Shown here one piece after another: positions 4,639 to 33,173 of a DNA stretch of 64,000 nt. Positions within the stretch are counted from its first letter, which is position 1, and each line of letters begins with the position of its first letter. The stretch lies in the IMG/VR virus record IMGVR_UViG_3300032167_005013, one strand, 5' to 3'. The notes under the pieces were generated by a model that worked only from the letters and a program-made list of their open reading frames with translations, was not told the DNA's origin and did not search any database. The stretch is from a virus. Taxonomy: Duplodnaviria > Heunggongvirae > Uroviricota > Caudoviricetes. Made by a program: the position numbers and the translations under genes.

Positions 4639-5364
4639 TTAGTGTTTATTTGGCACGTATCTTCCATATTTTTCCAATGCCTTCTCTCGTGCCTCTTCAA
4701 AAAGTTCACCTGAGCATTCAGTAAACTTATAGTATTCTTCAACATCACATCCCAAATATAAGTTACCATCATCACCAAGATGAAACATATTCTCAGAAGC
4801 AATATTCATTTCTGTTTGTGTTGTTAAACAACAAAATTTATAATCTTCCTCCGTTTGTTCCTGCAACCATATATAATCCTGAGGCATCCATTCGCCATCA
4901 AAACTTTTATCATATCTCTCATATAAAAACTGATATGACTCAAATTCTTGGACACATGGTAAACCAACAACCTGTATGACCGAACCTAAAGAATCACATT
5001 TAAATGTTTTTCCCAAAAGATAATCAAATTCTTCCCTTCTAACATTGAAGAACGAATCATTGTCATCGGATATCATAACAATATCTGTTTCAGCCTGTGG
5101 TTCAATATTGTCATAAAAATCAGTACTAGGAGAAAGATAAAAACCTGTCAACACATACTTACCCTTATCAAGATAGCCTTTAGGGACAAAATGCATCTTC
5201 CCACAAGATTCCTCGATAAGTCTAACAACATCATCGTTAATAATTTTTATAACGCCGATGGCATCACTTAAACATGTAATGTGTGGGTCATGCACATCAG
5301 AATCAATTAAAAATTCGTTTTTCTTATCCACCATAAACAACCATTGTATTATTATCCCAATCAA
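4639..5364 (-). CDS. hypothetical protein
   Basis: 241-aa ORF. Confidence 0.45.
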   Translation of the reverse strand: MIGIIIQWLFMVDKKNEFLIDSDVHDPHITCLSDAIGVIKIINDDVVRLIEESCGKMHFVPKGYLDKGKYVLTGFYLSPSTDFYDNIEPQAETDIVMISDDNDSFFNVRREEFDYLLGKTFKCDSLGSVIQVVGLPCVQEFESYQFLYERYDKSFDGEWMPQDYIWLQEQTEEDYKFCCLTTQTEMNIASENMFHLGDDGNLYLGCDVEEYYKFTECSGELFEEAREKALEKYGRYVPNKH

Positions 5365-5875
5365 ATGTCTTATAAATAAAAATCATATCAAAAATGGCAA
5401 ACTTATACATCCATGAACTACTTACGAGTTTTCTATCAGATAAATCAATATTGAAATAGTGCCTTTCACCATCATCTCCTAAATAACTACTCTCCCATTC
5501 TCTAATTTCATGCTCCCATTCCTTTACCAATTCAACAGTAAACCAATGCTTTGAAAATTCTTTTTCCTCAGGATGCTGATATAAGTCAAGAGATGCTTTC
5601 ATATAATCAATTATCCTCTGTCTGTATTCAAGAATAATCATCTTGAATCCTTCTTTGGTTATTGAATACACATCAACATCATCATGTTCGAACAAGCATT
5701 TGATTTCTTTTTGAAAATCTTCATTCTCCCCTTTTAGTTTAAGCCAAAATTCAGTACCGTTGTTATGACAAATTACCTCGCCGTTAATTTCAAACCACGG
5801 ATAACCGTTATCTTCTTCAACTTTTATTATCGGTTCATCCTTATCCGCTTTATACCAATTAACCCTCCAACCCAT
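5324..5875 (-). CDS. hypothetical protein
   Basis: 183-aa ORF. Confidence 0.45.
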   Translation of the reverse strand: MGWRVNWYKADKDEPIIKVEEDNGYPWFEINGEVICHNNGTEFWLKLKGENEDFQKEIKCLFEHDDVDVYSITKEGFKMIILEYRQRIIDYMKASLDLYQHPEEKEFSKHWFTVELVKEWEHEIREWESSYLGDDGERHYFNIDLSDRKLVSSSWMYKFAIFDMIFIYKTFDWDNNTMVVYGG

Positions 5876-6122
5876 ATGTTCCTAAAAGTTCTTCTATTAT
5901 TTTTTTATCAATTGCATCCGAAATATTTTTTGTCTGTTCGTTAAGAATATCATTCTCTATTGTTTTTTTCCATTCAGCATCCGGGACATATTGTTTTACA
6001 AGATAACAATGAATTACAGATTGCCCGTTACAATAACGCTGAAATTCGTCTCCTTCATTTCTACAACCTTTACAATGTTCTTTTCTTAACTTTTTGACAA
6101 AATCAGTCTCTGTGTATATCAT
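5859..6122 (-). CDS. small Cys-rich protein
   Basis: CKGCRNEGDEFQRYCNG. Confidence 0.35.
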   Translation of the reverse strand: MIYTETDFVKKLRKEHCKGCRNEGDEFQRYCNGQSVIHCYLVKQYVPDAEWKKTIENDILNEQTKNISDAIDKKIIEELLGTYGLEG

Positions 6123-6130
6123 AATTTTTT

Positions 6131-6697
6131 TTATAATTGAAATTTCGTGTTTATATAAAAAATATCTCCCTGTGGAGGTGAAAAAGGTTTCACAGCAATT
6201 TCATCGTATTTAGGGAATCTAAATTGTACAATTGGATAATATCTTTGTTTTTCATTGTTTGTTGTGTCGGAATACAATTTATCAGTTTCTATTTTATTTA
6301 ACAAATCATATTCCTTTTCAACCTTAAACTCCACAGTACCGTCTTTTTTGACACCTCTAAGATACTTTACCCAATCCACTGTGCATTCTTCCACCGATTC
6401 ATAGCCATAGTCACCAACTAATCTTGCTGTATTGATATGATTGGATTTTTCGAACTTCTCCCTTTCTTCTTTAAAAACTCGCTCAAGTTTTTCTTTTGTT
6501 TCACTGTTCGTTACAAACGAATAATATGGTCTGCACTTTTGAGGAATCTTGGATAACGCATCATCTATTGCCTTCCGACATTCAGCACAATAATACATTG
6601 AACAACCTTCCTCAGTACCATACTCAGGGCCATTACCATATGTACAATATGTGTATTCTTTTTGACAATGTTTACATCTTAATCTGAAATGCTGCAT
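6131..6697 (-). CDS. Zn-ribbon protein
   Basis: CKHCQKEYTYC ... CAECRKAIDD. Confidence 0.45.
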   Translation of the reverse strand: MQHFRLRCKHCQKEYTYCTYGNGPEYGTEEGCSMYYCAECRKAIDDALSKIPQKCRPYYSFVTNSETKEKLERVFKEEREKFEKSNHINTARLVGDYGYESVEECTVDWVKYLRGVKKDGTVEFKVEKEYDLLNKIETDKLYSDTTNNEKQRYYPIVQFRFPKYDEIAVKPFSPPQGDIFYINTKFQL

Positions 6698-16462: not shown

Positions 16463-17983
16463 TCAAACTGCATTATACTCACTAATACTCTCAATAAGGT
16501 CTGATAATGTCATAAGAACATATTCAGGGTACTTCTTTGAAACAAAATTTCCTGTCTTAGGGTCAATATCAGCAATTGCCGATATGCTCTTAGGTATATC
16601 CCCATCTTCAGCAAATGCTACTTTTTCATCATATGGCAGGGCTTCAAACGCCTCATTGAATGCATTACGAATTTCATTAATACCCTTTTCCTCTTCCTCA
16701 GCCATTCTCCTATCATAGTCAGCCACAATTTCCTCCCAATTCATAGAACATTCATCAATGAAAGGAATATCGAACTCAGGATGGGCTTTCCAAAAACGAA
16801 TCTCCTTATCTTCCATTGTCATCAACTGTTCATATGTATCTTGGTCGCCTTCCTTATTAGGTTGTCCCGAAGTAAGTACTGATTCTTCCTCGGTAAAATA
16901 TGGACGGTCCTCAGGATTGGTAATAAGAATACGTGTTCTAATATCTTTCGAGAAGCATACAAGAAGAGGTGTGATTCTCTTATTGAACATGTCAATATAC
17001 TTTGCTGAATTATATTCCTCACCTTCCTGACAATATACATCTGTTTCAGAATCAACAATATTCTGTGGAAGAAGTCGTGCGTTAAGAATAATCTCATCCT
17101 CTTTCTGAGCATATGGATAGGCCTTTGTTAAGAATTCATTCATTGTAAGGGACTTGTCCTCTTTCTTATGCGCCTTGAACTCCTTTTCAATTTTAGTGGT
17201 TACATCCACCTTCTCGTGTTCACCGTTTGATAAAGTCTGATATTCATAATATTTAGCCACTTTCTTGACATCAGCCTGTGACTTGCTTTTACCTGTATTT
17301 ACATAATACAAAGTCTCACCCTGCTTGACATCAAGCCCTTCCTTAATTGCCAATTCCATCCATGCCTGACGTGACTTAGGCCTACCTGCCTTAGTAAGCG
17401 TCTTGCAATCCTTAATATAATCTTTAATGTTCTTTTTTACCTTACCCTTGGATGCAATATCCTTAAGCGGAATCTGATAATTGTATATCTTTTCTATATA
17501 AGAATAATATTCATCCAAAAATCCTGAGCCATTGTTCTGCAGAAGCAACCTGATACCTTTTTCAAGAAACTTTGAAATATATATAGGCATTTTCTTGGAT
17601 TTAATGGTATTACCGACAAGTTTCACATCATTAGGAAATGGATTTTCCGGGAAATAATCTGCGTAATTTTTACGTGAGAAGTTGATGGTCGAATCAACAA
17701 TCTCATCTATGCCGAGTCCCATCTTTCCTCGCATATAAAGGTCATTGAACTCAGCGACATCGGCCTTGAAACCTGTATATTTTTGCCCTTCTACGACATT
17801 TCTATTTAGTCCTTTTCCAATGTAAGGGTTTTCGTCAGTATAACGATACTCTGACGGGAGTTTGAAGTTAAATCCGTCAGTATTTGAGATTACATTTAGT
17901 CCCAACGCATTTACAATTGTACCATCACATGAAATATCATAAACGTAATCATCTGTTTTTCCCTTTTTCTCTACTTTAATCAT
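16463..17983 (-). CDS. family-B DNA polymerase, C-terminal half, preceded by a 34-aa split-intein C-part
   Basis: opens MIKVEKKGKTDDYVYDISCDGTIVNALGLNVISN then TDGFNF; the DTDG motif-C remnant comes straight after the intein end; the TTG at 18013 is likely not the true start. Confidence 0.65.
   Translation of the reverse strand: MIKVEKKGKTDDYVYDISCDGTIVNALGLNVISNTDGFNFKLPSEYRYTDENPYIGKGLNRNVVEGQKYTGFKADVAEFNDLYMRGKMGLGIDEIVDSTINFSRKNYADYFPENPFPNDVKLVGNTIKSKKMPIYISKFLEKGIRLLLQNNGSGFLDEYYSYIEKIYNYQIPLKDIASKGKVKKNIKDYIKDCKTLTKAGRPKSRQAWMELAIKEGLDVKQGETLYYVNTGKSKSQADVKKVAKYYEYQTLSNGEHEKVDVTTKIEKEFKAHKKEDKSLTMNEFLTKAYPYAQKEDEIILNARLLPQNIVDSETDVYCQEGEEYNSAKYIDMFNKRITPLLVCFSKDIRTRILITNPEDRPYFTEEESVLTSGQPNKEGDQDTYEQLMTMEDKEIRFWKAHPEFDIPFIDECSMNWEEIVADYDRRMAEEEEKGINEIRNAFNEAFEALPYDEKVAFAEDGDIPKSISAIADIDPKTGNFVSKKYPEYVLMTLSDLIESISEYNAV
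17882..17983 (-). other. split-intein C-terminal part (Int-C, about 34 aa, ends ...VISN; the +1 residue is Thr)
   Basis: intein block F/G-like pattern DDYVYDISCDG..IVNALGLNVISN; inference from motifs. Confidence 0.55.
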
Positions 17984-18217
17984 ATTAAAATATTTTTCAT
18001 TAAGTTTTTGCAAAAATAAAAACTATTTTTCTTTTTTCCAAATATATTTTTTGGGAATGATATACAAGTTACACTAAAAATGCCATAAATAACTGAAGTC
18101 TATACGAAAATGTCTGGACTTTTTATGATATTTATTAAGAAAAAGTAGTATGAATTTACAATACGTTACTGCTAAAAATGTTAGAAATAATTTTTATAGT
18201 GAAAAATAAATATATAT

Positions 18218-18568
18218 ATGGAAAACCGAAATATAATACAACATCTACGTGGAAATTCACCATTATCAATTGGTAAAGCTAAAGAAATAGGAATGCTCCA
18301 AGGAGAAATTGCCATTAAACATGGTGTTAGCGGAGACTCAGAACTTTATGTATTATCACAAGATGGTGAAGCATTAGATATATTTGTTCCCAAATCGTAT
18401 ATTGATTCAAAACTGTTTTATGGTACACAGGCAGAATACGATGCGGCATATGCTGCTGGTAAAATTGCAATAGGCGCAATTGTTGTCATTATAGATGATG
18501 AAGAAAACACAAATGGCGCTTCATCTAAATTAGGTGAGGGTGTAATTGGAGAAATGATTTTAGAATAA
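18218..18568 (+). CDS. tail-fibre N-terminal-domain protein
   Basis: GEIAIKHGVSGDSELYVLSQDGEALDIFVPK resembles the N-terminus of the 56789..58483 fibre. Confidence 0.45.
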   Translation: MENRNIIQHLRGNSPLSIGKAKEIGMLQGEIAIKHGVSGDSELYVLSQDGEALDIFVPKSYIDSKLFYGTQAEYDAAYAAGKIAIGAIVVIIDDEENTNGASSKLGEGVIGEMILE

Positions 18569-18583
18569 AAAATAAATAAAGAG

Positions 18584-19447
18584 ATGATTTTATATATTAA
18601 AGGTGCTAATTTTTCAGCATCAAATATAGGAACACTTAGCACTTATATTGTGCAAAAAACTATGGGTGCAGGTATATCGCACAATATTCCTAATTTTATT
18701 AATAGAAACGAGGAAAACGTAGTATGGACTGTTACATTATCACAAGATTATATATTTGGTGAATATAGTATTGTTATGGGTGGTGAGGTAATAGAACCAA
18801 ATATTCAAGATAATATTATGACTATAACAATTCCAGTAGTAACCAATAACATCAGTATTTCAATTGCAAGCATTTATGAAAATAATGGAGATGGAAGTGA
18901 TGGACAAGAAACAGTTATATTGTTAAACAATAATGTTAATTTCTCAGATTTAAGTGTTTCATCATATGGTCCTACTCAAGGTACAGGTGGTTCTTCATTC
19001 GTAGAAAGATGTGCTCTTTCAGGAGGTACATATGTAGATTATGTTGATTTTTATGTTATCACACCTAACAAAACTTTCCCTAGCGAACCTATAACTATTC
19101 CATATATTAAACTATATTTTGTGGATGCTGAAACAGAAACTGTCGAAGAATTAGTATATGACCAAGCAAATCAATCATCTATTTTATCTGATACTACCGA
19201 AACAAATGGTTATCAAATTATTAGATGTCCTATTAAACGTACATTGCAAAAAAATATTCATCTTGGTATTACAGTAAATGAAGGTTATAGTGATTATTCA
19301 TCATTGTATACTATCCCTTATGTAAATTATACGACTTCTAATAGTATACTTGGTAAACCTTATTTTGGTACAACAATTGTTTTGGGACAAACAGTTGCAG
19401 GAAAAACTGCTAATTATTATTGTCCTATGGTAATTTATGGTTATTAA
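18584..19447 (+). CDS. tail-associated hypothetical protein
   Basis: 287-aa ORF inside the fibre cassette. Confidence 0.4.
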   Translation: MILYIKGANFSASNIGTLSTYIVQKTMGAGISHNIPNFINRNEENVVWTVTLSQDYIFGEYSIVMGGEVIEPNIQDNIMTITIPVVTNNISISIASIYENNGDGSDGQETVILLNNNVNFSDLSVSSYGPTQGTGGSSFVERCALSGGTYVDYVDFYVITPNKTFPSEPITIPYIKLYFVDAETETVEELVYDQANQSSILSDTTETNGYQIIRCPIKRTLQKNIHLGITVNEGYSDYSSLYTIPYVNYTTSNSILGKPYFGTTIVLGQTVAGKTANYYCPMVIYGY

Positions 19448-19479
19448 AATATAATTTTTTTCAAAAAAAAATAATTGAC

Positions 19480-20598
19480 ATGGGTTATACAAAACAAGGG
19501 TTTGTGAAGGGAATGACATTAGAGCATACTCACCTTATTAATATGGAAGATGGAATAATAAGTGCTTCACAAGGAGGTGTAGAGGATATTTATGCATCGT
19601 CATATGGTGTAGTACCTGGTGTTGTTGATATGAGTAAAATGAATGAGTTATTATCAGCAGCCAATGGCAAAACTATTAGGTTTAATGATGGTGAATATAT
19701 TTTTCCTTCGCATATAACAGTCCCTTCTAACATATCATTTATCGGAAACACTAAAACCATATTTAAATTATCAAGTGATAGTGCATCTAATATTCTTTTT
19801 TACATCGTTGGTTCGACTAATGTGACAATTTCAAGAATGTTTATTGATGGCGGGGCATCTAAAGTGCAACCTACGGGTAATGTCGATGATATTCTTGATA
19901 AAACAAATTCAGGCAATCGTTATGGTATTTGGTGTGAAAAAACCAGACGTGTTAAAATTACTGATGTTGATGTTTTAGGATGGGACATGTGTGGACTATA
20001 TTGTGCAGACAACGATTCAGGAGGGGGTGAATATGGCCGTTTCTTCCATACTATAGAAGTGACACGTTCTAGTTTTTATTTTAATTATTATGGTTTGTGG
20101 TTTGCTCAATATGGCGAATATAATCAGGTGGAATGTTGTAATTTTGGTGACAACTTTATTGGTGTTCTAAATGAAGGTGGAAACAATATGTATGTTGGCA
20201 ACATGTTTTGTAACAATTATTGCGGTTTTGCTTTGAATGGGGACGGAATTACTAACGAGTCACACGGAGGCTGTTATAGTTGTACTTACAACCATAATTC
20301 AATTACTGGATTAGGTGGCGGTGTTGCAATTTACATGAATAAAAGCACCGTTGGATGGAATTTTACGGGACAAAATATTTGGTATGGTGCTGTTACATTA
20401 AAAGATTGTAAAGGAGTTATATTTAATGGAAATATTTGGGGTAATGTTCAATTTACAAGTACACATTCAGAAGGATTAAAAAATCAAAATATGGTAACAA
20501 ACACATACTTCCATACCAACCCAAGTGCGGTGTTAAATGGAAATGATGGTTCGACATTTTTTGGACCTTATTTACCTGGGGGTGTGGTTAATGAATAA
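19480..20598 (+). CDS. putative tailspike or depolymerase with a right-handed beta-helix (pectate-lyase-like)
   Basis: repeated N..G / G..N turns and Gly- and Asn-rich beta-helix-like composition; start moved to ATG 19480. Confidence 0.45.
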   Translation: MGYTKQGFVKGMTLEHTHLINMEDGIISASQGGVEDIYASSYGVVPGVVDMSKMNELLSAANGKTIRFNDGEYIFPSHITVPSNISFIGNTKTIFKLSSDSASNILFYIVGSTNVTISRMFIDGGASKVQPTGNVDDILDKTNSGNRYGIWCEKTRRVKITDVDVLGWDMCGLYCADNDSGGGEYGRFFHTIEVTRSSFYFNYYGLWFAQYGEYNQVECCNFGDNFIGVLNEGGNNMYVGNMFCNNYCGFALNGDGITNESHGGCYSCTYNHNSITGLGGGVAIYMNKSTVGWNFTGQNIWYGAVTLKDCKGVIFNGNIWGNVQFTSTHSEGLKNQNMVTNTYFHTNPSAVLNGNDGSTFFGPYLPGGVVNE

Positions 20599-20636
20599 CC
20601 ACACCCCATTTTATAAAACAATAAAAATAACAAGAT

Positions 20637-22520
20637 ATGGCAACATTTTATATACAATTATCCGATAAATTGCTTAAAATAGGTGATGATGTAACTAAAG
20701 AAACAATTCATAAGGCTTTGGGGTATACTCCAAGTAGTTTTTCGGGTAATTTTAATGATTTGACTGATAACCCATTCGCAATTACTGATGATGGGGAATT
20801 TAATATTGTTGACGAAAATGGTAATATAGTAGCAAAATTCGATGATAAAGGTCTGCACGTTATTGATGTTGAAGTTATTTCTGAAGATGGTATTCATAAA
20901 CTTTCTAATAAAGTAGATAAAAATTATGTAGATAATCTAATTTTTAATGCTAATGAAAATTTACCTTTTAAAGAAGATGAATCAGGCTCTTTTGATATTG
21001 CGGATTTAAATGGTAATATAATTACCAGCATAGATAGCAATGGTGTTTCTTCTGTAGAATTTAATGCACGTGGTCATAAATTAACTGAAAAAATTGATAA
21101 TAATATACTTGAAAACCGTTTAGATGATTTAACAACAACTAATTTTTCTTCAGGAGAATATGTTGATATTACTCTTAAACAAGAGAAAGGACGCATTACT
21201 AATGTTAAAATTAGTGACACTAAGTTATCAAACGCAATTAAAATTGATGAAGACCCCGCATTTCAAATATCCGATAACAAAAATAACATTGCATTTAAGG
21301 TTGACGAAAAAGGGGCCGAGGCAGTGGAATTTCGTGCAGGTAAACATTATCTTACTAATAAAACGGAAAGAACTTACGTTGACAATGAACTTTTAAAACT
21401 TCGAGTTGATACTCAAAAATCGATAGGGAATATTAAGTTTTCTGACTTAACTGAAAATCCATTTAACGATTCAGAGGAAGGTACTTTAAAAATTGTCGAT
21501 AATAAGACTAATATAATAGTAACTATAGATAACAATGGCGTAACTTCAACTGAGTTTATTGCAGGAAAGCATAAATTAACTGAAAAATCAGATTTAAATT
21601 ATGTAAATAATAATTTTTTAAACATCAACACTTCAGTTGGCACATTAAAAGACAATATCCAAAATAATGAAAAAAATATATCATCTTTAAGTGATGATGT
21701 AGAAACTTTAACAAATGAAGTTTCTTTAAATACATCTGCTATTACTGAATTGCAAAATATAAAATATGCTTCTTCATCAAGTAAAGGTGGTGCGGCTGAT
21801 AGTGTGGCTAATGCACTAACAATTAAAGCAGGGTCAAGTAAAAACTTTAGTATCGACATTTTCAATGGTAGTTCTGTGACAACAATACCGCTACCAACAA
21901 AAATTAGTCACCTTGAAAACGATTCTAATTTAACTGATGACTTTAACGATGAATTTCATATTATTGATAATGAGGGCAATAAAATTGCGACATTTAATAA
22001 TTATGGCTTATTTGTTTCGAAAGTTACAACTGTAGAACCTATAATTTCTCAAGATTTTATTGCAGGAGAACATAAGTTGTCCAATAAAGTTGATAAAAAT
22101 CATATCGGTGATTCAGTTAAAAATGTTTTATTAACAACAAATGATTTAACCAATGAAGAAAAACAAACAATTAGAAATAACATAGGTTCTGTAAATAGTT
22201 TTGAACAGTATAGTAGTGATGGAGGAATTCTTAACGAGGAACAGTATAGAATAATGTCAAAATATTTATATACCCCATTTATGATTTCTTCTAACAGTGT
22301 GACTACAATACCAGATGAATTATTGAATGAAAGTAAAACAAATTTTTTCTGTGATTGGTGTTGGAATATAATGAGAATAACAGGTGGTGAACCAATAGTT
22401 GTAGTTGAATGGGACGACTATGATAACCCAACTAAGTTTAAAGGTCTTTTGAATGGAGTTACATATGTAGTCAATCGCACTAATTGGACCATTGCTCCTG
22501 AAGACTATTCGGGGGAATAG
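20637..22520 (+). CDS. tail fibre with five copies of an F-x-AGKHKL(T/S)xK-x-D-x-NYVDN module
   Basis: VEFNARGHKLTEKIDNN, EFRAGKHYLTNK, EFIAGKHKLTEKSDLNYVNN, DFIAGEHKLSNKVDKNHIGD, IHKLSNKVDKNYVDN. Confidence 0.55.
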   Translation: MATFYIQLSDKLLKIGDDVTKETIHKALGYTPSSFSGNFNDLTDNPFAITDDGEFNIVDENGNIVAKFDDKGLHVIDVEVISEDGIHKLSNKVDKNYVDNLIFNANENLPFKEDESGSFDIADLNGNIITSIDSNGVSSVEFNARGHKLTEKIDNNILENRLDDLTTTNFSSGEYVDITLKQEKGRITNVKISDTKLSNAIKIDEDPAFQISDNKNNIAFKVDEKGAEAVEFRAGKHYLTNKTERTYVDNELLKLRVDTQKSIGNIKFSDLTENPFNDSEEGTLKIVDNKTNIIVTIDNNGVTSTEFIAGKHKLTEKSDLNYVNNNFLNINTSVGTLKDNIQNNEKNISSLSDDVETLTNEVSLNTSAITELQNIKYASSSSKGGAADSVANALTIKAGSSKNFSIDIFNGSSVTTIPLPTKISHLENDSNLTDDFNDEFHIIDNEGNKIATFNNYGLFVSKVTTVEPIISQDFIAGEHKLSNKVDKNHIGDSVKNVLLTTNDLTNEEKQTIRNNIGSVNSFEQYSSDGGILNEEQYRIMSKYLYTPFMISSNSVTTIPDELLNESKTNFFCDWCWNIMRITGGEPIVVVEWDDYDNPTKFKGLLNGVTYVVNRTNWTIAPEDYSGE

Positions 22521-27837: not shown

Positions 27838-28152
27838 TTATTTTTCTTTAATCGAATCTAAAATATCTTTAGCGAGTTCAGTCATTTCATTCAGACTCTT
27901 TTGAATTTCATTGGGCTCATAACAATCCATAACAACGTTATCCATGACCCAAGTACTCAATTTTGAACCATTTTCTTCCGAAAACTTTTTATATCTTTCA
28001 GGGTAAAGGTCACAATAATGTTCATAGCCAAGAAACTCGTTCCACACCATAAAAACTTTTCCGTTCGAATCAGTTTCTTCGCATCTTTTCATAAGAGACC
28101 TAATCTGTTGATGAACACATCCACCAGAACAATTACATCCTTTACATGCCAT
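27838..28152 (-). CDS. Cys-rich small protein (CKGCNCSGGC)
   Basis: 104-aa ORF with a Cys cluster near the N-terminus. Confidence 0.4.
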   Translation of the reverse strand: MACKGCNCSGGCVHQQIRSLMKRCEETDSNGKVFMVWNEFLGYEHYCDLYPERYKKFSEENGSKLSTWVMDNVVMDCYEPNEIQKSLNEMTELAKDILDSIKEK

Positions 28153-28164
28153 ATCTTTTACTAT

Positions 28165-28365
28165 TTATACAGGTTTAACTTCGTAATTCAAATCAAGCAT
28201 ATCTTGATAAGATTCGACCATTAATTTGTGTTTTACCGCCTTAGCAACCTTATGTGACTCGAAAACTCCTATACATATTCCATTCTCATATACTGCATGA
28301 GGCTTAGGCTTAAACATTTTTCTTTTTTCTTCTTTATTCATACCCCATTGCTTTTTTATAATCAT
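28165..28365 (-). CDS. hypothetical small protein
   Basis: 66-aa ORF. Confidence 0.3.
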   Translation of the reverse strand: MIIKKQWGMNKEEKRKMFKPKPHAVYENGICIGVFESHKVAKAVKHKLMVESYQDMLDLNYEVKPV

Positions 28366-28600
28366 CGTACATTAATCCAAACCTAACATCAGTAACATCC
28401 CCGGATATATAATCAAGAGCAAAATCCTTAAACCATTCAAAAGCCCTTTCCTCACCATATACAGCACCCTTGCAAAACTCATCCATCATTTCATTTTTGC
28501 TGAATTTTCTCATATCCAAACCAAGGCCCGTATTATAACTTTTAATTGATTTCAATGCAGCTTTAAACCTCTCAGGAGTTCTGTATTCTCGTTTATCCAT
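28334..28600 (-). CDS. hypothetical protein
   Basis: 88-aa ORF. Confidence 0.35.
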   Translation of the reverse strand: MDKREYRTPERFKAALKSIKSYNTGLGLDMRKFSKNEMMDEFCKGAVYGEERAFEWFKDFALDYISGDVTDVRFGLMYDDYKKAMGYE

Positions 28601-29355
28601 TACTCATCAAAATTTTCAAAATTCGTACCATATTGGAACGTGTCCCATTCTCTCCCAAAAACACTGAAAAGTCCATTGTCTTTAATCAGGAGTTCAATGA
28701 TTTGACCCTCATCAGCCCAAACATCATAAGCCGAACACCAACCCATTTGGTCTTCAGTTGCACGATATGTCTGACTGAAAATTTCATAAAGACGCATTTC
28801 TTTATTCACTGATTTAGCGTAAGACAGGGCATCAGCAATACATTCACTATTCTGTGGCAACCCAACGTGAGGCCTCCATCCGAAATCATATTTATTTAGT
28901 TCCCTCATCAACGCCCAAAATGAAAAATCGTCACGCACATTCACTGTCATCTCATGACCATAAGCATTATTATAAGGGAAAACCCATTTTTCTATGAACC
29001 CCTCACAATATAAAGGACTGATATCATTATTAGTACTATATAAATCGCCATATACAAGGTCCTTAGGAAGACTTACTATGAATGCGTCTCCCGGGGTCTT
29101 AACAGTTACAACCCACCCATGAAAATTGTCTCGACAAATTACAGTAATACCATTATTAAGTCTAAACATATATACGGGAAGTAAGCAACTCTTGCTCATA
29201 TGTGATGATACGACAAAACAAGGAGTTTTCAAGAGATTAGTACATATACTATCCCTAACAAAACATTCCTGTTTCTCTGCAGATTTCTTCCAAAGAAGGG
29301 TATCATCAAGGTCAAAACTTCTCTGTCTGTTTAAAATCAATTCATTAATTCTCAT
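28600..29355 (-). CDS. hypothetical protein
   Basis: 251-aa ORF preceded by the repeated promoter block at 29371-29406. Confidence 0.45.
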   Translation of the reverse strand: MRINELILNRQRSFDLDDTLLWKKSAEKQECFVRDSICTNLLKTPCFVVSSHMSKSCLLPVYMFRLNNGITVICRDNFHGWVVTVKTPGDAFIVSLPKDLVYGDLYSTNNDISPLYCEGFIEKWVFPYNNAYGHEMTVNVRDDFSFWALMRELNKYDFGWRPHVGLPQNSECIADALSYAKSVNKEMRLYEIFSQTYRATEDQMGWCSAYDVWADEGQIIELLIKDNGLFSVFGREWDTFQYGTNFENFDE

Positions 29356-29409
29356 AAAGTTTTTATTTAAAAGTTTTCTTATCTTACTGCAAATACCGTG
29401 CCAAAGTAA

Positions 29410-29613
29410 TTAGTCCCCAAAAATATTTTCACCTTTGTCAAACTTTCTTTGCTTATCAGCAACATCTTCCCTAAAATCATCCCATTCGAATAATGTAGGA
29501 ATATCCAAATTATCAGGAAACCAATCCATCCAAGAAAAAGGATTTCCATTAATTATCCACAATGGTCCTCCAAGAACAATTGTTGTAAAAAAGATAAAAA
29601 TACCCAAAATCAT
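29410..29613 (-). CDS. small membrane protein (MILGIFIFFTTIVLGG...), immediately downstream of the IS element's right end
   Basis: hydrophobic N-terminus; the ORF-track start at 29643 would lie inside the IS end, so the ATG at 29611-29613 is preferred. Confidence 0.35.
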   Translation of the reverse strand: MILGIFIFFTTIVLGGPLWIINGNPFSWMDWFPDNLDIPTLFEWDDFREDVADKQRKFDKGENIFGD

Positions 29614-29830
29614 GGTTATTCCATTGCAGTCAACTACACCCACCTAAAGGAGGGTGCTTGACACTGCCTCGTTAGAGGCATGTCGATTGGGAGGTTGACT
29701 GCTCCCTGCCTGTAAGGATAACCAATTGACCTTCAATTGGTAAAAAACTCGATACAGGGTGGTTGGACCTTTGTCCGATATTAATCGCAGCATTCCAATC
29801 TGAGTCAAAGACAACTCCGTCAACGCAGAT
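29600..29830 (-). ncRNA. candidate omega RNA (right-end RNA) overlapping the tnpB 3' end and extending past the IS right end
   Basis: GC-rich structured segment 29641-29720 (hairpin gacatgcctc-taac-gaggcagtgtc) in an otherwise AT-rich genome; position matches known TnpB omega RNAs; not verified. Confidence 0.3.
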
Positions 29831-30995
29831 ATATCTGCGACCACGGCGCTCTCCATCACGATTATTGGTGCGACAATCCATCTGACTTGTATACATCGGA
29901 GAAACTGTTTCCACCTGCTTGCCCGCAAGTGGTGCCTTGTAAGTCAATATACGTTTAAATTCATAAAATGGAATCTGAGATAAAGCATTGTTATGCTTCG
30001 CTCTCTTGTACCCCTCACTGGTACGTGAAGTTTTCTTTTTAATCTTTGTGAGGTCTTCCATCACAATGATGGAAGCATTTGTACTATTAATGAGTACTTT
30101 ACTTGCACGATAACACATGTCCTTAGAGAGGTTGCGTTCCTTGTTGCGAACTTTCTTAAGGTGGCGCTTTGCTGATTTGGTACCTTTCTCTTGTAGTTTA
30201 CGCTTAAGATAACGGATGTCCCTACGCTTCTTAAGATATGTTGTATCTTTAAATGCCTTACCCTCTGAGGTAACAAATATCATTCTTGCACCGAGGTCAA
30301 CACCTATGCACTCCTCAGAATGTAATGGTTTTTCAGGTACTTCGAAGGGTACTGAAAGGAAGAAATTCCCGTTTCTATAGAATATTGTAGGGTCATATGC
30401 CTTATAAGTACTAAGCATTTCTTTTGCCTTAGGATAGACATTAAAAGGTACGAAAGTACGTTTGTTTTTCTGTGCCCCAGTAATGGTTATTCCTTCAGAT
30501 GTAAGCACTCCGTAGAGGCGTTTATCGAGGGTCATTGTTAATGATTTTCTCTGTGGTACTTCAGCGTTCTTATGTTTGTTTGCTTTAATTGATTTCAAAG
30601 CAGACGCTGCTGCTTGTTCGCACTTGATTACCATCTGTGAAGATAAAGCAGGAAACTCTGTCCTAATTACGTTATAACACGCCTCGTGTACTTTTTTAAG
30701 TGACAGTGTTATTTTGTTATCATGTAGAATACGTGTACACCTATTGTACGCATCTCTTGCACATACAAGAAGATTGTACCAATGCGTTGCATTGGTATCA
30801 TCCATTATTAGAGGTATGTTATAGGTTTGTACAATCATAGCATTCACGTATGTGATTTCTATATATAAATATTATAATAAATTAAAAAGTTTTATTTTTT
30901 TTTAAAAGTTATATATTTACATTAAGAAAATAATGTTTAACCAAAAAGGGTTTAATCGTAGTTCCTCTCCACCCTAAAGGATGGAGTTTCCCTAC
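29620..30995 (-). mobile_element. IS200/IS605-family element carrying only tnpB (IS1341-like), about 1.35 kb
   Basis: TnpB ORF; related subterminal hairpins at the left end (ctccaccctaaaggatggag, 30968-30987) and right end (cacctaaaggagggtg, 29641-29656); 10-bp inverted repeats 29625-29635 / 29693-29702 bracket the right end; boundaries approximate. Confidence 0.5.
29672..30838 (-). CDS. tnpB: TnpB (OrfB), an RNA-guided nuclease of the IS200/IS605 family
   Basis: RuvC-I GVDLGARMIF; C-terminal zinc-ribbon / RuvC-III region RYICVDGVVFDSDWNAAINIGQR (compare the canonical HADxNAAxNI); N-terminal YNIPL...YN; GTG at 30847 or ATG at 30838. Confidence 0.7.
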   Translation of the reverse strand: MIVQTYNIPLIMDDTNATHWYNLLVCARDAYNRCTRILHDNKITLSLKKVHEACYNVIRTEFPALSSQMVIKCEQAAASALKSIKANKHKNAEVPQRKSLTMTLDKRLYGVLTSEGITITGAQKNKRTFVPFNVYPKAKEMLSTYKAYDPTIFYRNGNFFLSVPFEVPEKPLHSEECIGVDLGARMIFVTSEGKAFKDTTYLKKRRDIRYLKRKLQEKGTKSAKRHLKKVRNKERNLSKDMCYRASKVLINSTNASIIVMEDLTKIKKKTSRTSEGYKRAKHNNALSQIPFYEFKRILTYKAPLAGKQVETVSPMYTSQMDCRTNNRDGERRGRRYICVDGVVFDSDWNAAINIGQRSNHPVSSFLPIEGQLVILTGREQSTSQSTCL

Positions 30996-31100
30996 GATAA
31001 ATTTATATGAAAAAATAAGGAATTAACCAAAGTCTCAAACCGATTAATTTCAAATGTGTTTTAGTACGTTCTGTCATAAAATCATAATTTAACATTCTCA

Positions 31101-31135
31101 GGGCAAATATACAAAAACCATGCCAAACCTAAAAA
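31101..31135 (-). promoter_or_regulatory. orphan sigma-A-type promoter (TTTGGCATGG...GTATATTTGC) now about 250 nt upstream of tnpB, separated from any phage gene by the IS
   Basis: same motif family as the promoters at 811, 3206 and 29376. Confidence 0.4.
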
Positions 31136-31159
31136 AATTCTTTTTTTTGCTACTTATAT

Positions 31160-31197
31160 AAAAAACGGGACCTGTCGTGAGACACATCCCGTTTACT
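31160..31197. repeat. second copy of the 36-nt hairpin element aaaaaacgggacctgtcgtgagacacatcccgttt (first copy at 15608-15646)
   Basis: exact repeat; this copy has no downstream T-run on either strand. Confidence 0.7.
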
Positions 31198-31213
31198 TCT
31201 ATTATATCAACAT

Positions 31214-32773
31214 TTAGTCGTGAAGAATCTGTTTACCCGTTGCTTCAACCTCAACATGTCCACCCTTAAGCGAAACATTTCTATCGGTCTTAGCATTAAT
31301 TGTGTGGGACTCAAGAATCTTAGAAAGGTCCACGCCTGTCGCATTGGAAACCGTATCAAATGTCTGTTTGATGACCATTGGGACATTTGCTGATACGCCT
31401 GAGACACCATTATTATCACCGCCACCATAAATGGTAACATTATCAATTGACTTGATTGGTTCAGCAACGTTCTTGGCCATGTCAGGAAGAATACCAACAA
31501 GCATTTCAACAATTGCAGCATCATTATACTTCTGATAAGCGTCGGCTTTCTTGTTCATTGCTTCAGCCTCAGCCTCACCCTTCTTAAGAATTGCATAAGC
31601 CTCAGCTTCACCCTTAGCCTTGATACCGAGAGCCTCCTGTTCCATCTTAAACTTAAGTGCCTCAGCCTCCGCTCTCATAGCCTTTGCCCTCTGCTCAGCC
31701 TCATATGTCTCTGCTTCAGCCTTTCTCTTGCGCTGTTCAAGTTCTGCTGCAGCCGCAACTTCCTTATGATACTTATCAGCATCAGCCTTCTTATTTACTT
31801 CCGCCTCAAGAGTCTTCTGCATGATGGCAATTTCCTGAGCCTTCAATTCCTGTGTCTTGGCAGCCTTTTCAACCTCCGCCTCAACCTGCTTTGCATTGAT
31901 TTCCTTGCGTCTTTCAGCCTCAATAAGAGCCTCGGCAGCATGTGCCTCAACGGTCTTCACCTTAATGGTCTTTGCCTGTTCCTGCTTCTGAATTTCATAT
32001 GCAGCATCAGCCTCAGCACGTTTGATGTCTTCCGAAATCTTAAGTTCTGACTTCTTGATTGCAAGCTCATTGTTTTTCTCAGCAATCTTCGTCTCCGACG
32101 CAACACGTGCATCATTTGATTCCTGAAGAGCCTGAGCCTCTGCTACCTTCACATCCTTTGTGGCCTGTGCCTTATTAATGGCAGCCTCCTTAGTAATCTT
32201 GCATGTATTATCAGCACCGAGAGCCTCAATAAGCCCCTCACGGTCAGTTACTGACTGAATATTACATGAAAGAATTTCAATACCCAGGCGTTCCATATCA
32301 ACAGCAGCCTTCTTCTGAATCTGATTAGAGAAACCATCACGGTCTGTGTTAAGGGCGCGTAAGTCGAGTGTTCCAACAATCTCACGCATATTACCCTGAA
32401 GAACATCCTTCACCTGATGAGATATCATCTCAGGAGACATATTAAGAAAGTTCGCACTTGCAAGCCTAATCCCATCTTCAGTTGGCATAATTCTAACCTT
32501 TGCCACAGCATCCACATCTACATTGATGAAGTCTGAGGTTGGGACAGGGGTTGTTGTCTTTACATCAACTGTAATCTGTCCGGTATAAACCTTATCAAGT
32601 TTCTGAAAGAACGGAATCCTAAATCCACCTGAACCAATAAGAATTTTAGGCTTTTTAGTAAGTCCTGATATAATATAAGCAATCTGTGGCGATGTCTTAA
32701 CATAAGACGCAAAAATAAAAAGGACAAGGAATGCCACAATTCCAATGACCACATAAGTAAGTGTACTTGACAT
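31214..32773 (-). CDS. flotillin-like SPFH/band-7 membrane protein
   Basis: N-terminal transmembrane helix, SPFH-like region, then a long Ala/Glu/Lys-rich coiled coil typical of FloT/YuaG flotillins; 519 aa. Confidence 0.6.
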   Translation of the reverse strand: MSSTLTYVVIGIVAFLVLFIFASYVKTSPQIAYIISGLTKKPKILIGSGGFRIPFFQKLDKVYTGQITVDVKTTTPVPTSDFINVDVDAVAKVRIMPTEDGIRLASANFLNMSPEMISHQVKDVLQGNMREIVGTLDLRALNTDRDGFSNQIQKKAAVDMERLGIEILSCNIQSVTDREGLIEALGADNTCKITKEAAINKAQATKDVKVAEAQALQESNDARVASETKIAEKNNELAIKKSELKISEDIKRAEADAAYEIQKQEQAKTIKVKTVEAHAAEALIEAERRKEINAKQVEAEVEKAAKTQELKAQEIAIMQKTLEAEVNKKADADKYHKEVAAAAELEQRKRKAEAETYEAEQRAKAMRAEAEALKFKMEQEALGIKAKGEAEAYAILKKGEAEAEAMNKKADAYQKYNDAAIVEMLVGILPDMAKNVAEPIKSIDNVTIYGGGDNNGVSGVSANVPMVIKQTFDTVSNATGVDLSKILESHTINAKTDRNVSLKGGHVEVEATGKQILHD

Positions 32774-32792
32774 ATATTTAAAAAATTAAAAA

Positions 32793-33173
32793 TTATTTCC
32801 TATTTTTCTTTTCATTCCTAAGTTCAACAACAGTCATAACTGCGTAATTAGCAAGGTCAAGAAGAGTATCTTCAACGGATTCGTCCTTTACCTGAATCTG
32901 TCCTTTCTCATAAATGTTTTCAAGACGTTCCATCTTATCCGACAGCCTTAACAAGGCTGTAAGAAAACCCCATTTCTTAAATCTCTTATGGAAATTATTT
33001 CCATAATCGGCATTCTTTTTAGCATGAACAACGTCCATTTCATGCAGAACATCATTAAAGTAATCAACATATTCATCAGAAGCAGTTTCTTCTACAGGCA
33101 ATTCAACGTAATCACTTCCATAATCTTTTGCAAGATTATCACCACTAAGTGTAAAACAATCGTAATTCTCCAT
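32793..33173 (-). CDS. hypothetical protein, possibly an all-alpha NTP pyrophosphohydrolase (MazG/DUF1599-like)
   Basis: HAKKNADYG and EDTLLDLANYAVMTVVEL; start moved to ATG 33171-33173, which has a TATCTTTGC -7 box upstream. Confidence 0.3.
   Translation of the reverse strand: MENYDCFTLSGDNLAKDYGSDYVELPVEETASDEYVDYFNDVLHEMDVVHAKKNADYGNNFHKRFKKWGFLTALLRLSDKMERLENIYEKGQIQVKDESVEDTLLDLANYAVMTVVELRNEKKNRK

Follow-up and report, generated by a model that had tools for sequence, protein, structure and literature searches.

Within a 64,000-nucleotide stretch of DNA (the window) from a virus of the Caudoviricetes (IMG/VR record IMGVR_UViG_3300032167_005013), positions 29629-31006 most likely represent a discrete tnpB-only (IS1341-like) insertion sequence of the IS200/IS605 family that carries its own guide RNA (omega RNA) and is non-autonomous, a reading to which we assign a probability of roughly 0.85. 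Elements of this kind are already known, and the present case is a further, well-documented example. The element occupies the intergenic region between a flotillin-like gene and a gene for a 67-amino-acid (aa) protein, is present in a single copy in the 64-kb window, where neither a second copy nor an orphan right end was found, and has neither terminal inverted repeats nor a target-site duplication. Its principal parts, together with the flanking sequences on which its activity would depend, are the following.

29629-31006, minus strand: the whole element of 1,378 bp, with left end, tnpB, omega RNA scaffold and right end; delimited by the alignment of four contexts and by empty sites.
31007-31011, minus strand: TTCAT, the target or transposon-adjacent motif, which belongs to the flank and not to the element and lies directly 5' of the left end; from empty sites and related elements.
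29672-30838, minus strand: the tnpB coding sequence, 388 aa from the ATG at 30838; from profile, alignment and gene calls.
29629-29762, minus strand: the conserved, predicted omega RNA scaffold (minimum extent), over the last ~30 tnpB codons and the right end; from folding and covariation.
29609-29628, minus strand: the predicted omega RNA guide template, TGCAATGGAATAACCATGAT, flank DNA that starts at the first base past the right end.

The ends were set by the breaks in homology among four aligned loci, namely the window and the copies on three other phage-like contigs (L031, L032 and L033), which are 84-98% identical in protein and have unrelated neighbours; the shared sequence begins at TTCATAT... 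and ends at ...GTAGTTGAC. The comparison with relatives lacking the insertion, which the initial annotation had proposed as a check, fixed both ends to the base. Six contigs from six sequencing runs, all from relatives that are ~96% identical, lack the element, and in these the flotillin-like gene, a terminator and the intergenic region run straight into the genes for the 67-aa protein and for a 251-aa protein. The runs with empty contigs are ERR11556857, SRR30535864, DRR768664, SRR26714010, SRR24653875 and SRR24653934, and filled contigs occur in the samples ERZ27248436, ERZ27248446 and JGI 3300018493. The empty junction reads ...TTTTTTCAT|TGCAATGG... (in longer form ...CCTTATTTTTTCAT|TGCAATGGTAATAACCATG..., with the variant TGCAATGATAATAACC); in other words, the filled site has the form TTCAT[element]TGCAATG... 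and the empty site the form TTCAT|TGCAATG..., with TTCAT kept directly before TGCAATG in 6/6 cases. Deletion of 29629-31006 in silico reproduces the empty contig L136 with 95% identity over 314 nt, and the five further empty sites agree with the L136 junction. Given this match, the element is 1,378 bp long and was inserted 3' of TTCAT without duplicating the target, which is a hallmark of the IS200/IS605 family, the features of which are summarised in PMC13565253. Related elements in other contexts, compared in pairs, are likewise preceded by TTCAC or TTCAT.

The flanks of the filled and empty alleles are 95.7% identical over 5.5 kb, and the copy in L031, in an unrelated context, is 96.9% identical to that of the window at the DNA level. 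This copy is thus more similar to the window copy than the filled lineage is to the empty one at the locus, so that transposition is recent relative to the split of these lineages; the unrelated context of the L031 copy supports recent mobility as well. The initial annotation had proposed that the element inserted recently or remains active; the former is supported by these comparisons, and continuing activity seems plausible from the selection on tnpB and the polymorphism at the site. The empty sites were reached through a protein search with the 251-aa neighbour, followed by contig look-ups by exact protein. Other searches yielded no comparable loci: megablast of positions 28000-33000 against 50,697 phage records gave no match, tblastn against the same records gave only distant TnpBs with less than 33% identity, a search of IMG/VR with the 251-aa protein found nothing, a metagenome scan with this protein gave no confirmed match, and the exact patterns of the junctions had 0 matches in viral and metagenome contigs.

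Both ends of the element contain subterminal hairpins.

30955-30998, minus strand: the left-end subterminal stem-loop, an outer stem ATCGTAG/CTACGAT around an imperfect hairpin; from the sequence and an inverted-repeat scan.
30967-30986, minus strand: the left-end imperfect hairpin itself, CTCCATCC-TTTA-GGGTGGAG (in full ctccaccctaaaggatggag).
29637-29656, minus strand: the right-end subterminal imperfect hairpin with a T-T mismatch, CACCCTCC-TTTA-GGTGGGTG in DNA and CACCCUCC-UUUA-GGUGGGUG in RNA.

The two hairpins had been noticed initially, the right one exactly at 29641-29656, within the full hairpin of 8 bp, and the left one at 30968-30987, one base off its actual position. They resemble each other, and the pair was also flagged as a direct repeat in the repeat scan. 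Their common core, CCTAAAGGAKGG, is found only at these two places in the 64 kb, compared with 0.32 matches expected by chance, and two matches were reached in 6 of 100 shuffles. The left-end stem-loop is conserved in L031-L033, and distant relatives share its architecture. Furthermore, the loop-adjacent base pairs of the left and right hairpins vary together across elements (permutation p = 0.0004, a rough value given that the automatic left-end finder chose wrong hairpins at many loci). Such likeness and co-change would be expected if one protein reads both hairpins, and the right-end hairpin is presumed to be a recognition element of the Y1 transposase TnpA.

The protein encoded by the element is readily identified as TnpB, as originally suggested. 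The open reading frame of 391 aa described at the outset, with its GVDLGARMIF motif, is present at 29672-30847 on the minus strand, where it reaches upstream to a GTG at 30847; the homologs and independent gene calls begin with MIVQTYNI, so that the ATG at 30838 is the likely start and the protein would comprise 388 aa. The sequence passes the cut-offs of the NCBIfam profile guided_TnpB (NF040570; 139.4 bits vs 100) and of the Pfam family Cas12f1-like_TNB (PF07282; 56.5 bits vs 26.3), and its score for OrfB_IS605 (PF01385), 25.2 bits, is under the cut-off of 30.5. A search of 5.8 billion proteins detected 1,731 relatives at E <= 1e-5; the best 120 of these are 53-98% identical to the query and nearly all unnamed. 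A profile built from an alignment of 20 relatives (54-88% identity) recognises TnpB and Cas12f chains of known structure, ISDra2 TnpB among them (E = 2.6e-10). The AlphaFold model (pLDDT 82.5) likewise has full-length Foldseek matches to AsCas12f, ISFba1 TnpB, ISDra2 TnpB and Fanzor2, with a probability of 1.00, E-values of 1e-16 to 1e-10 and TM-scores of 0.35-0.43. Alignment of the RuvC catalytic residues, another check proposed initially, revealed a complete triad: D184 (in GVDLG), E264 (in MEDL) and D350 (in DSDWNAA) are invariant in the 20 sequences and, in the profile match, fall in the GVDLG, VEDL and D-x-NAA motifs of the solved ISDra2-like nuclease, the catalytic residues of which are D191, E278 and D361 (PMC10097598).

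30296-30298, minus strand: GAC, the codon of D184.
30056-30058, minus strand: GAA, the codon of E264.
29798-29800, minus strand: GAT, the codon of D350.

In comparisons with three close copies, the ratio of nonsynonymous to synonymous divergence (dN/dS) is 0.05-0.2, with dS up to about 1.5-1.9; tnpB is intact and, judged by these substitution patterns, under purifying selection. RNA-guided, motif-dependent cleavage of DNA by this TnpB is predicted by analogy with characterised members of the family. A Cas12 or other CRISPR effector was considered and ruled out, the gene being part of an element of 1,378 bp that has transposon ends.

The 3' part of tnpB and the right end together appear to encode the scaffold of the omega RNA. 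The initial annotation had pointed to a GC-rich structured stretch over the tnpB stop codon, which is borne out: the GC content is ~0.46, against ~0.30 in the flanks, and the 134 nt at 29629-29762 have a folding energy of -52 kcal/mol (z = -5.7), a stability equalled in 0/200 shuffles. From 5' to 3', the scaffold consists of stem 1, GGCA, a 5-bp hairpin with GUCAAC in its loop, AAUCG, a variable hairpin, CAAGC, the imperfect hairpin with the UUUA loop, GUA and the terminal GUUGAC. Apart from the right-end hairpin given above, the structural elements are these.

29709-29758, minus strand: omega stem 1, a helix CCUGUA/UACAGG that closes an internal loop and the hairpin ACCAAUUG-AAGGU-CAAUUGGU; within the tnpB coding sequence.
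29689-29706, minus strand: the hairpin GGGAG-CAGUCAAC-CUCCC, the loop of which bears the 5' pseudoknot strand GUCAAC (29694-29699).
29660-29684, minus strand: the variable hairpin GACAUGCCUC-UAAC-GAGGCAGUGUC, with the tnpB stop codon TAA (29672-29674) in its loop.
29629-29634, minus strand: the terminal six bases GUUGAC, which form the 3' strand of the pseudoknot, serve as the cleavage site of the right end and lie just 5' of the guide.

Folded on its own, the window sequence gives the same hairpins as the structure derived from its relatives, and one right-end architecture is kept, with compensatory changes, in relatives down to 37% protein identity. With the catalytic triad and the empty sites also examined, none of the three findings that the initial annotation had named as refuting its reading was made. 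In 23 sequences, RNAalifold predicts stem 1 and three hairpins, with compensatory changes in 29/33 pairs. In the structure named above, including the pseudoknot, 83.7% of the cells are paired, compared with 69.1% in shuffles, and both sides are changed in 17/25 pairs; 0/500 shuffles reach the observed values, and controls with slid partners pair in 22-45%. The outer helix of stem 1 is paired in 96.4% and shows two-sided changes in 6/6 pairs; the register of inner stem 1 taken from the window sequence alone held in 49% of the cells, and that of RNAalifold is better. The arms of the 29689-29706 hairpin are paired in 97.4%, with compensatory changes in 4/5 pairs and the variants GGGAG/CTCCC, GGCAT/ATGCC, GGCCG/CGGCC and AGCCA/TGGCT among the relatives. 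The variable hairpin, which had been recognised at the outset and lies on the minus strand as listed, differs in length and sequence among the relatives and is retained as a hairpin. The pseudoknot GUCAAC:GUUGAC is paired in 99.3%; double changes occur in 2/6 pairs, with one G-U variant, and the remaining pairs are nearly invariant, hence uninformative. The covarying variants are ATCAAC/GTTGAT, TTCAAC/GTTGAA, GTCAAT/ATTGAC and GTCGAG/CTTGAC. A guide-proximal pseudoknot is a conserved feature of the guide RNAs of TnpB and Cas12 (PMC10097598). The inverted repeat that had been seen to bracket the structured stretch thus exists, albeit with 9 bp (29626-29634 and 29694-29702) instead of 10; its inner 6 bp, GTCAAC/GTTGAC, are conserved and correspond to the pseudoknot, and the outer 3 bp are chance flank bases specific to this insertion.

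With 72 G-U against 9 A-C pairs, the structure appears to be selected on the tnpB (minus) strand. In the tnpB codons that overlap the RNA, synonymous divergence drops from ~1.9 to ~0.3. A scan of IMG/VR with the right-end pattern detected 80 loci, from which 36 without GTCAAC in the fixed position were set aside (some of them chance matches to the 20-base pattern and some variant right ends with GTCAAT); the same 3' module is found in 44 loci, which belong to several TnpB clades. A scan for sigma-70 promoters returned fewer sites than in shuffles, the consensus being probably unfit for this host.

The guide had originally been expected to be read from about 29600-29640. It is now placed with its start at 29628, running downward from there, positions 29629-29640 being the scaffold and transposon end. 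A length of 16-20 nt is assumed by analogy with other TnpBs. The template spans the ribosome-binding region and the start codon of the next gene, and in the window TGCAATGGAATAACCATGAT matches only itself, where it is preceded by TTGAC and not by TTCAY.

Several findings weigh against the interpretation of 29629-31006 as a mobile element with a working guide RNA. First, a TnpA profile detected no TnpA in the 64 kb of the window, nor was one found within 3.5-10 kb of ~70 related loci; the profile is a hidden Markov model built from tblastn matches to an IS608 TnpA sequence, Pfam Y1_Tnp gives 148 bits for one of its seeds, and it matches solely in distant bacterial IS605 loci. A scan of IMG/VR with the left-end pattern found six sites, none with tnpA. 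Given the matching hairpins at both ends and the lack of tnpA nearby, a Y1 TnpA would be needed in trans, and mobilisation from such a source is the most plausible course. Second, the TNB domain lacks a conserved CxxC...CxxC zinc finger. The C-terminal block CVDGVVFDSDWNAAINIGQR to which the initial annotation had referred is present, whereas its designation as a zinc ribbon fails: the only invariant cysteine is C341, and C325 varies as C, S or N among clade members. In the zinc-finger region (29798-29900), members of the window clade (for example, those at L146, L149, L141, L196 and L188) have 0-2 cysteines at non-conserved positions, compared with four in the sister clades (L216, L210, L199 and L165), which have the same right-end RNA module; in ISDra2 TnpB, zinc is coordinated by C331/C334/C351/C354 (PMC10097598). 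The TNB domain is still recognised by Pfam despite the cysteine loss, and in view of the missing CCCC zinc finger nuclease competence is not to be assumed. Third, the guide differs at position 9 by a 1-nt indel from every empty allele found. These alleles consist of TTCAT followed by guide-like sequence, which reads TGCAATGGTAATAACC in 5 contigs and TGCAATGATAATAACC in 1, against TGCAATGG-AATAACC (29613-29628) in the filled template (positions compared: L136 193-208, L236 3725-3740 and L242 166-181; also L237, L238 and L243). The window copy may thus not be able to cut the empty sites that databases contain at present. The indel may be due to chance, the six contigs being interrelated and their flanks differing by 4.3%; alternatively, it could be that only empty alleles resistant to cutting persist. 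Finally, an Rfam scan found no family at threshold, and the omega RNA transcript itself, its 5' end and the length of the guide are predictions from the genomic sequence. A group I intron (IStron) was also considered and ruled out, with no Rfam family reaching threshold.

Other elements with similar ends were encountered in related contigs. In L031, a second, different tnpB-only element (5135-6648, with a 441-aa TnpB) is located ~3.2 kb away from the copy with 98% identity. In left end, right-end hairpin, GTAGTTGAC terminus and TTCAT target it is almost the same as the window element, and this pair points to one trans-acting transposase serving several cargoes. Miniature derivatives, which retain both ends and an omega-like scaffold without tnpB, were found at L152 4411-4783, L208 10288-10651 and L158 about 2085-2228. 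These look PATE/MITE-like and would need TnpA as well as TnpB to be supplied in trans.

Karvelis 2021 and Meers 2023 are reportedly among the sources of the established biology of ISDra2 TnpB. The mechanism that we propose for the window element is modelled on characterised TnpBs, in particular ISDra2 (PMC10097598, Nakagawa 2023). The tnpB transcript would be processed to the omega RNA, with the 3' 16-20 nt (TGCAATGGAATAACCATGAT) derived from the flank, and TnpB together with this RNA would cut DNA in which TTCAY is followed by the guide sequence, that is, the empty site. The element would then be restored or spread through recombination with a filled copy. The donor site would be spared because the right end terminates with TTGAC and not with TTCAY, and new insertions would need a Y1 TnpA in trans. 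With many replicating phage genomes in a cell, or upon co-infection, the cut could act like that of a homing endonuclease.

Homing in co-infecting phages, including 'non-restorative homing', has been proposed as a concept (PMC13565253). It is conceivable, if rather doubtful, that the zinc-finger-less clade as a whole is a phage-adapted system of RNA-guided homing among co-infecting huge phages, cutting the alleles that lack the insertion and needing no TnpA for most transfers, and that the indel at position 9 is a trace of resistance. If so, homing would favour the carrier phage, as free-standing homing endonucleases do in T-even phages. Under the same concept (PMC13565253), the element could work in the manner of the genes for such endonucleases (Seg, Mob): a nuclease gene located between conserved phage genes cuts the allele that lacks it and is copied in by repair, and the window element is polymorphic in presence or absence between ~96%-identical phages. 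It differs from Seg and Mob in its probable guidance by RNA, its transposon ends and its many unrelated sites.

A different possibility, which we consider unlikely, is that TnpB and its RNA are not a selfish transposon at all, being instead a weapon of the phage that cuts related rival phages in which the insertion is absent (marker exclusion) or a TldR-like, nuclease-impaired binder or regulator. The 'non-restorative homing' concept cited above would accommodate a weapon of this kind, and the clade is found mostly on viral contigs, with 8 loci at >=39% identity in 185,579 species genomes. Among the examined contigs with identical flank proteins, 23/23 contain the element; nevertheless, its presence is polymorphic at the site, both transposon ends are intact, copies occur at unrelated sites, and the observed empty alleles mismatch the guide. 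The guide spans the start region of the next gene, as might be expected of a regulator, but the target at the element's own locus lacks TTCAY, so that repression of the neighbouring gene is not expected. TldRs, which are nuclease-dead, TnpB-derived repressors encoded in prophages, resemble the window protein as TnpB relatives in phages with a degenerate or lost zinc finger; they have, however, lost both the triad, which is degraded, and the transposon ends (bioRxiv 10.1101/2023.11.30.569447), and the window element keeps both. Identity with TldRs was ruled out on these two grounds.

Less likely still is that the element is an inactive relic that lost its function together with the zinc finger and persists as a passive passenger of the phage. 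Three of the four zinc ligands are missing and no transposase gene was found nearby, as a relic would have it; however, the entire zinc-less clade retains the invariant DED triad and the covarying RNA, dN/dS is low even where dS reaches about 1.5-1.9, and the L031 copy at another site is more similar to the window copy than the filled lineage is to the empty one. There is hardly any case for an IscB-type (HEARO) guide RNA on the plus strand with the guide on its 5' side: the Rfam model RF02033 matches 29629-29726 on that strand with 19.7 bits and similar antisense matches of 20-28 bits occur at the right ends of five related loci, but all these scores are far under the gathering score of 83 and involve only the first ~50 model positions, there is no IscB gene, the neighbouring gene is a tnpB on the opposite strand, and the excess of G-U pairs puts the structure on the minus strand.

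These antisense matches (L155 3498-3733, L210 2888-3036, L153 1303-1443, L216 1071-1218 and L165 1827-1949) cover the outer helix GUCAAC/GUUGAC, the UAAA-loop hairpin and CUUG, and are always opposite the tnpB strand. Their recurrence may reflect a transposon end that is shared with IscB elements.

One of the known systems closest to the window element is ISDra2 of Deinococcus radiodurans (PDB 8EXA, 8H1J), with which it shares the RuvC DED triad, a guide RNA that runs over the tnpB 3' end into the right end (here predicted from sequence), a pseudoknot formed by the last scaffold bases beside the 3' guide (PMC10097598), a 5' motif that is the target site of the transposon, and the lack of target duplication. 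The two proteins are only 16-17% identical in structural alignments, the motif is TTGAT in ISDra2 and TTCAY here, and the window element differs further in having no tnpA, in its non-conserved CCCC zinc finger and in being carried by a huge phage. With the IS1341 (tnpB-only) group, as delimited in PMC13565253, it shares subterminal imperfect hairpins at both ends, tnpB as the sole gene and, probably, dependence on a transposase in trans; the miniature derivatives in the related phage contigs L152, L208 and L158, with ends and RNA scaffold but no tnpB, parallel PATEs. It differs from that group in that the closest relatives of its lineage are unnamed metagenome proteins. IS608 of Helicobacter pylori, the reference for Y1 TnpA, likewise inserts 3' of a short specific motif and has, close to each end, an imperfect hairpin with a mismatched T, and no inverted terminal repeats, but it encodes tnpA, which the window element lacks, and targets TTAC.

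TnpB is the ancestor of Cas12 and is itself a compact genome editor. To this family, tnpB genes of which have already been reported to be frequent in phages (PMC12607003), the window adds a fully delimited natural example, with exact ends, the TTCAY motif, a guide template and an RNA with a pseudoknot supported by covariation, and with filled and empty alleles within the same phage lineage. The zinc-less clade retains the catalytic triad and is under strong purifying selection; if its members are active, the zinc finger would be dispensable in this scaffold. Huge gut and rumen phages, in which several tnpB-only elements share their ends and no transposase is visible, would represent a natural system for inter-viral RNA-guided homing.

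The carrier is probably a very large phage of gut or rumen Bacteroidales (Prevotella or another member), the host being suggested by the distribution of related proteins. Among the genes of the window are those for a family B DNA polymerase of phage type and an SbcC-like protein; ClpP, a primase-like protein and a methyltransferase appear in the gene calls of identical contigs, and identical flank proteins are found on contigs as long as 349,824 bp. IMG/VR contigs commonly carry relatives of the TnpB clade, which are rare in the species genomes: of 411 relatives detected there, the 8 loci of at least 39% identity are all in Bacteroidales or uncultured gut metagenome-assembled genomes. The gene on the downstream side of the insertion is a neighbour and not part of the element.

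29410-29613, minus strand: the gene for the 67-aa protein, with a hydrophobic N-terminus and a start codon 15 nt beyond the right end; from the list of open reading frames and the gene calls in L034-L036.

This protein has no match in Pfam. Upstream of the insertion is the flotillin-like gene (31214-32773, minus strand), which encodes a 519-aa SPFH/Band 7 protein; its relatives, with 40-63% identity, are found on many huge-phage contigs of IMG/VR, up to 415 kb in length, and have no synteny around the gene in common. Several kinds of TnpB occur in related huge phages: TnpB genes from other clades are also located on related contigs at L032 14793-16314 and L137 1532-2764, one of which, with an HTH_OrfB_IS605 domain, adjoins a MerR/HTH_17 gene, and another is inserted beside a homolog of the 251-aa neighbour. 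On L032, neighbouring genes at 17933-21004 match the intein splicing domain PF14890, which suggests that these phages also contain inteins.

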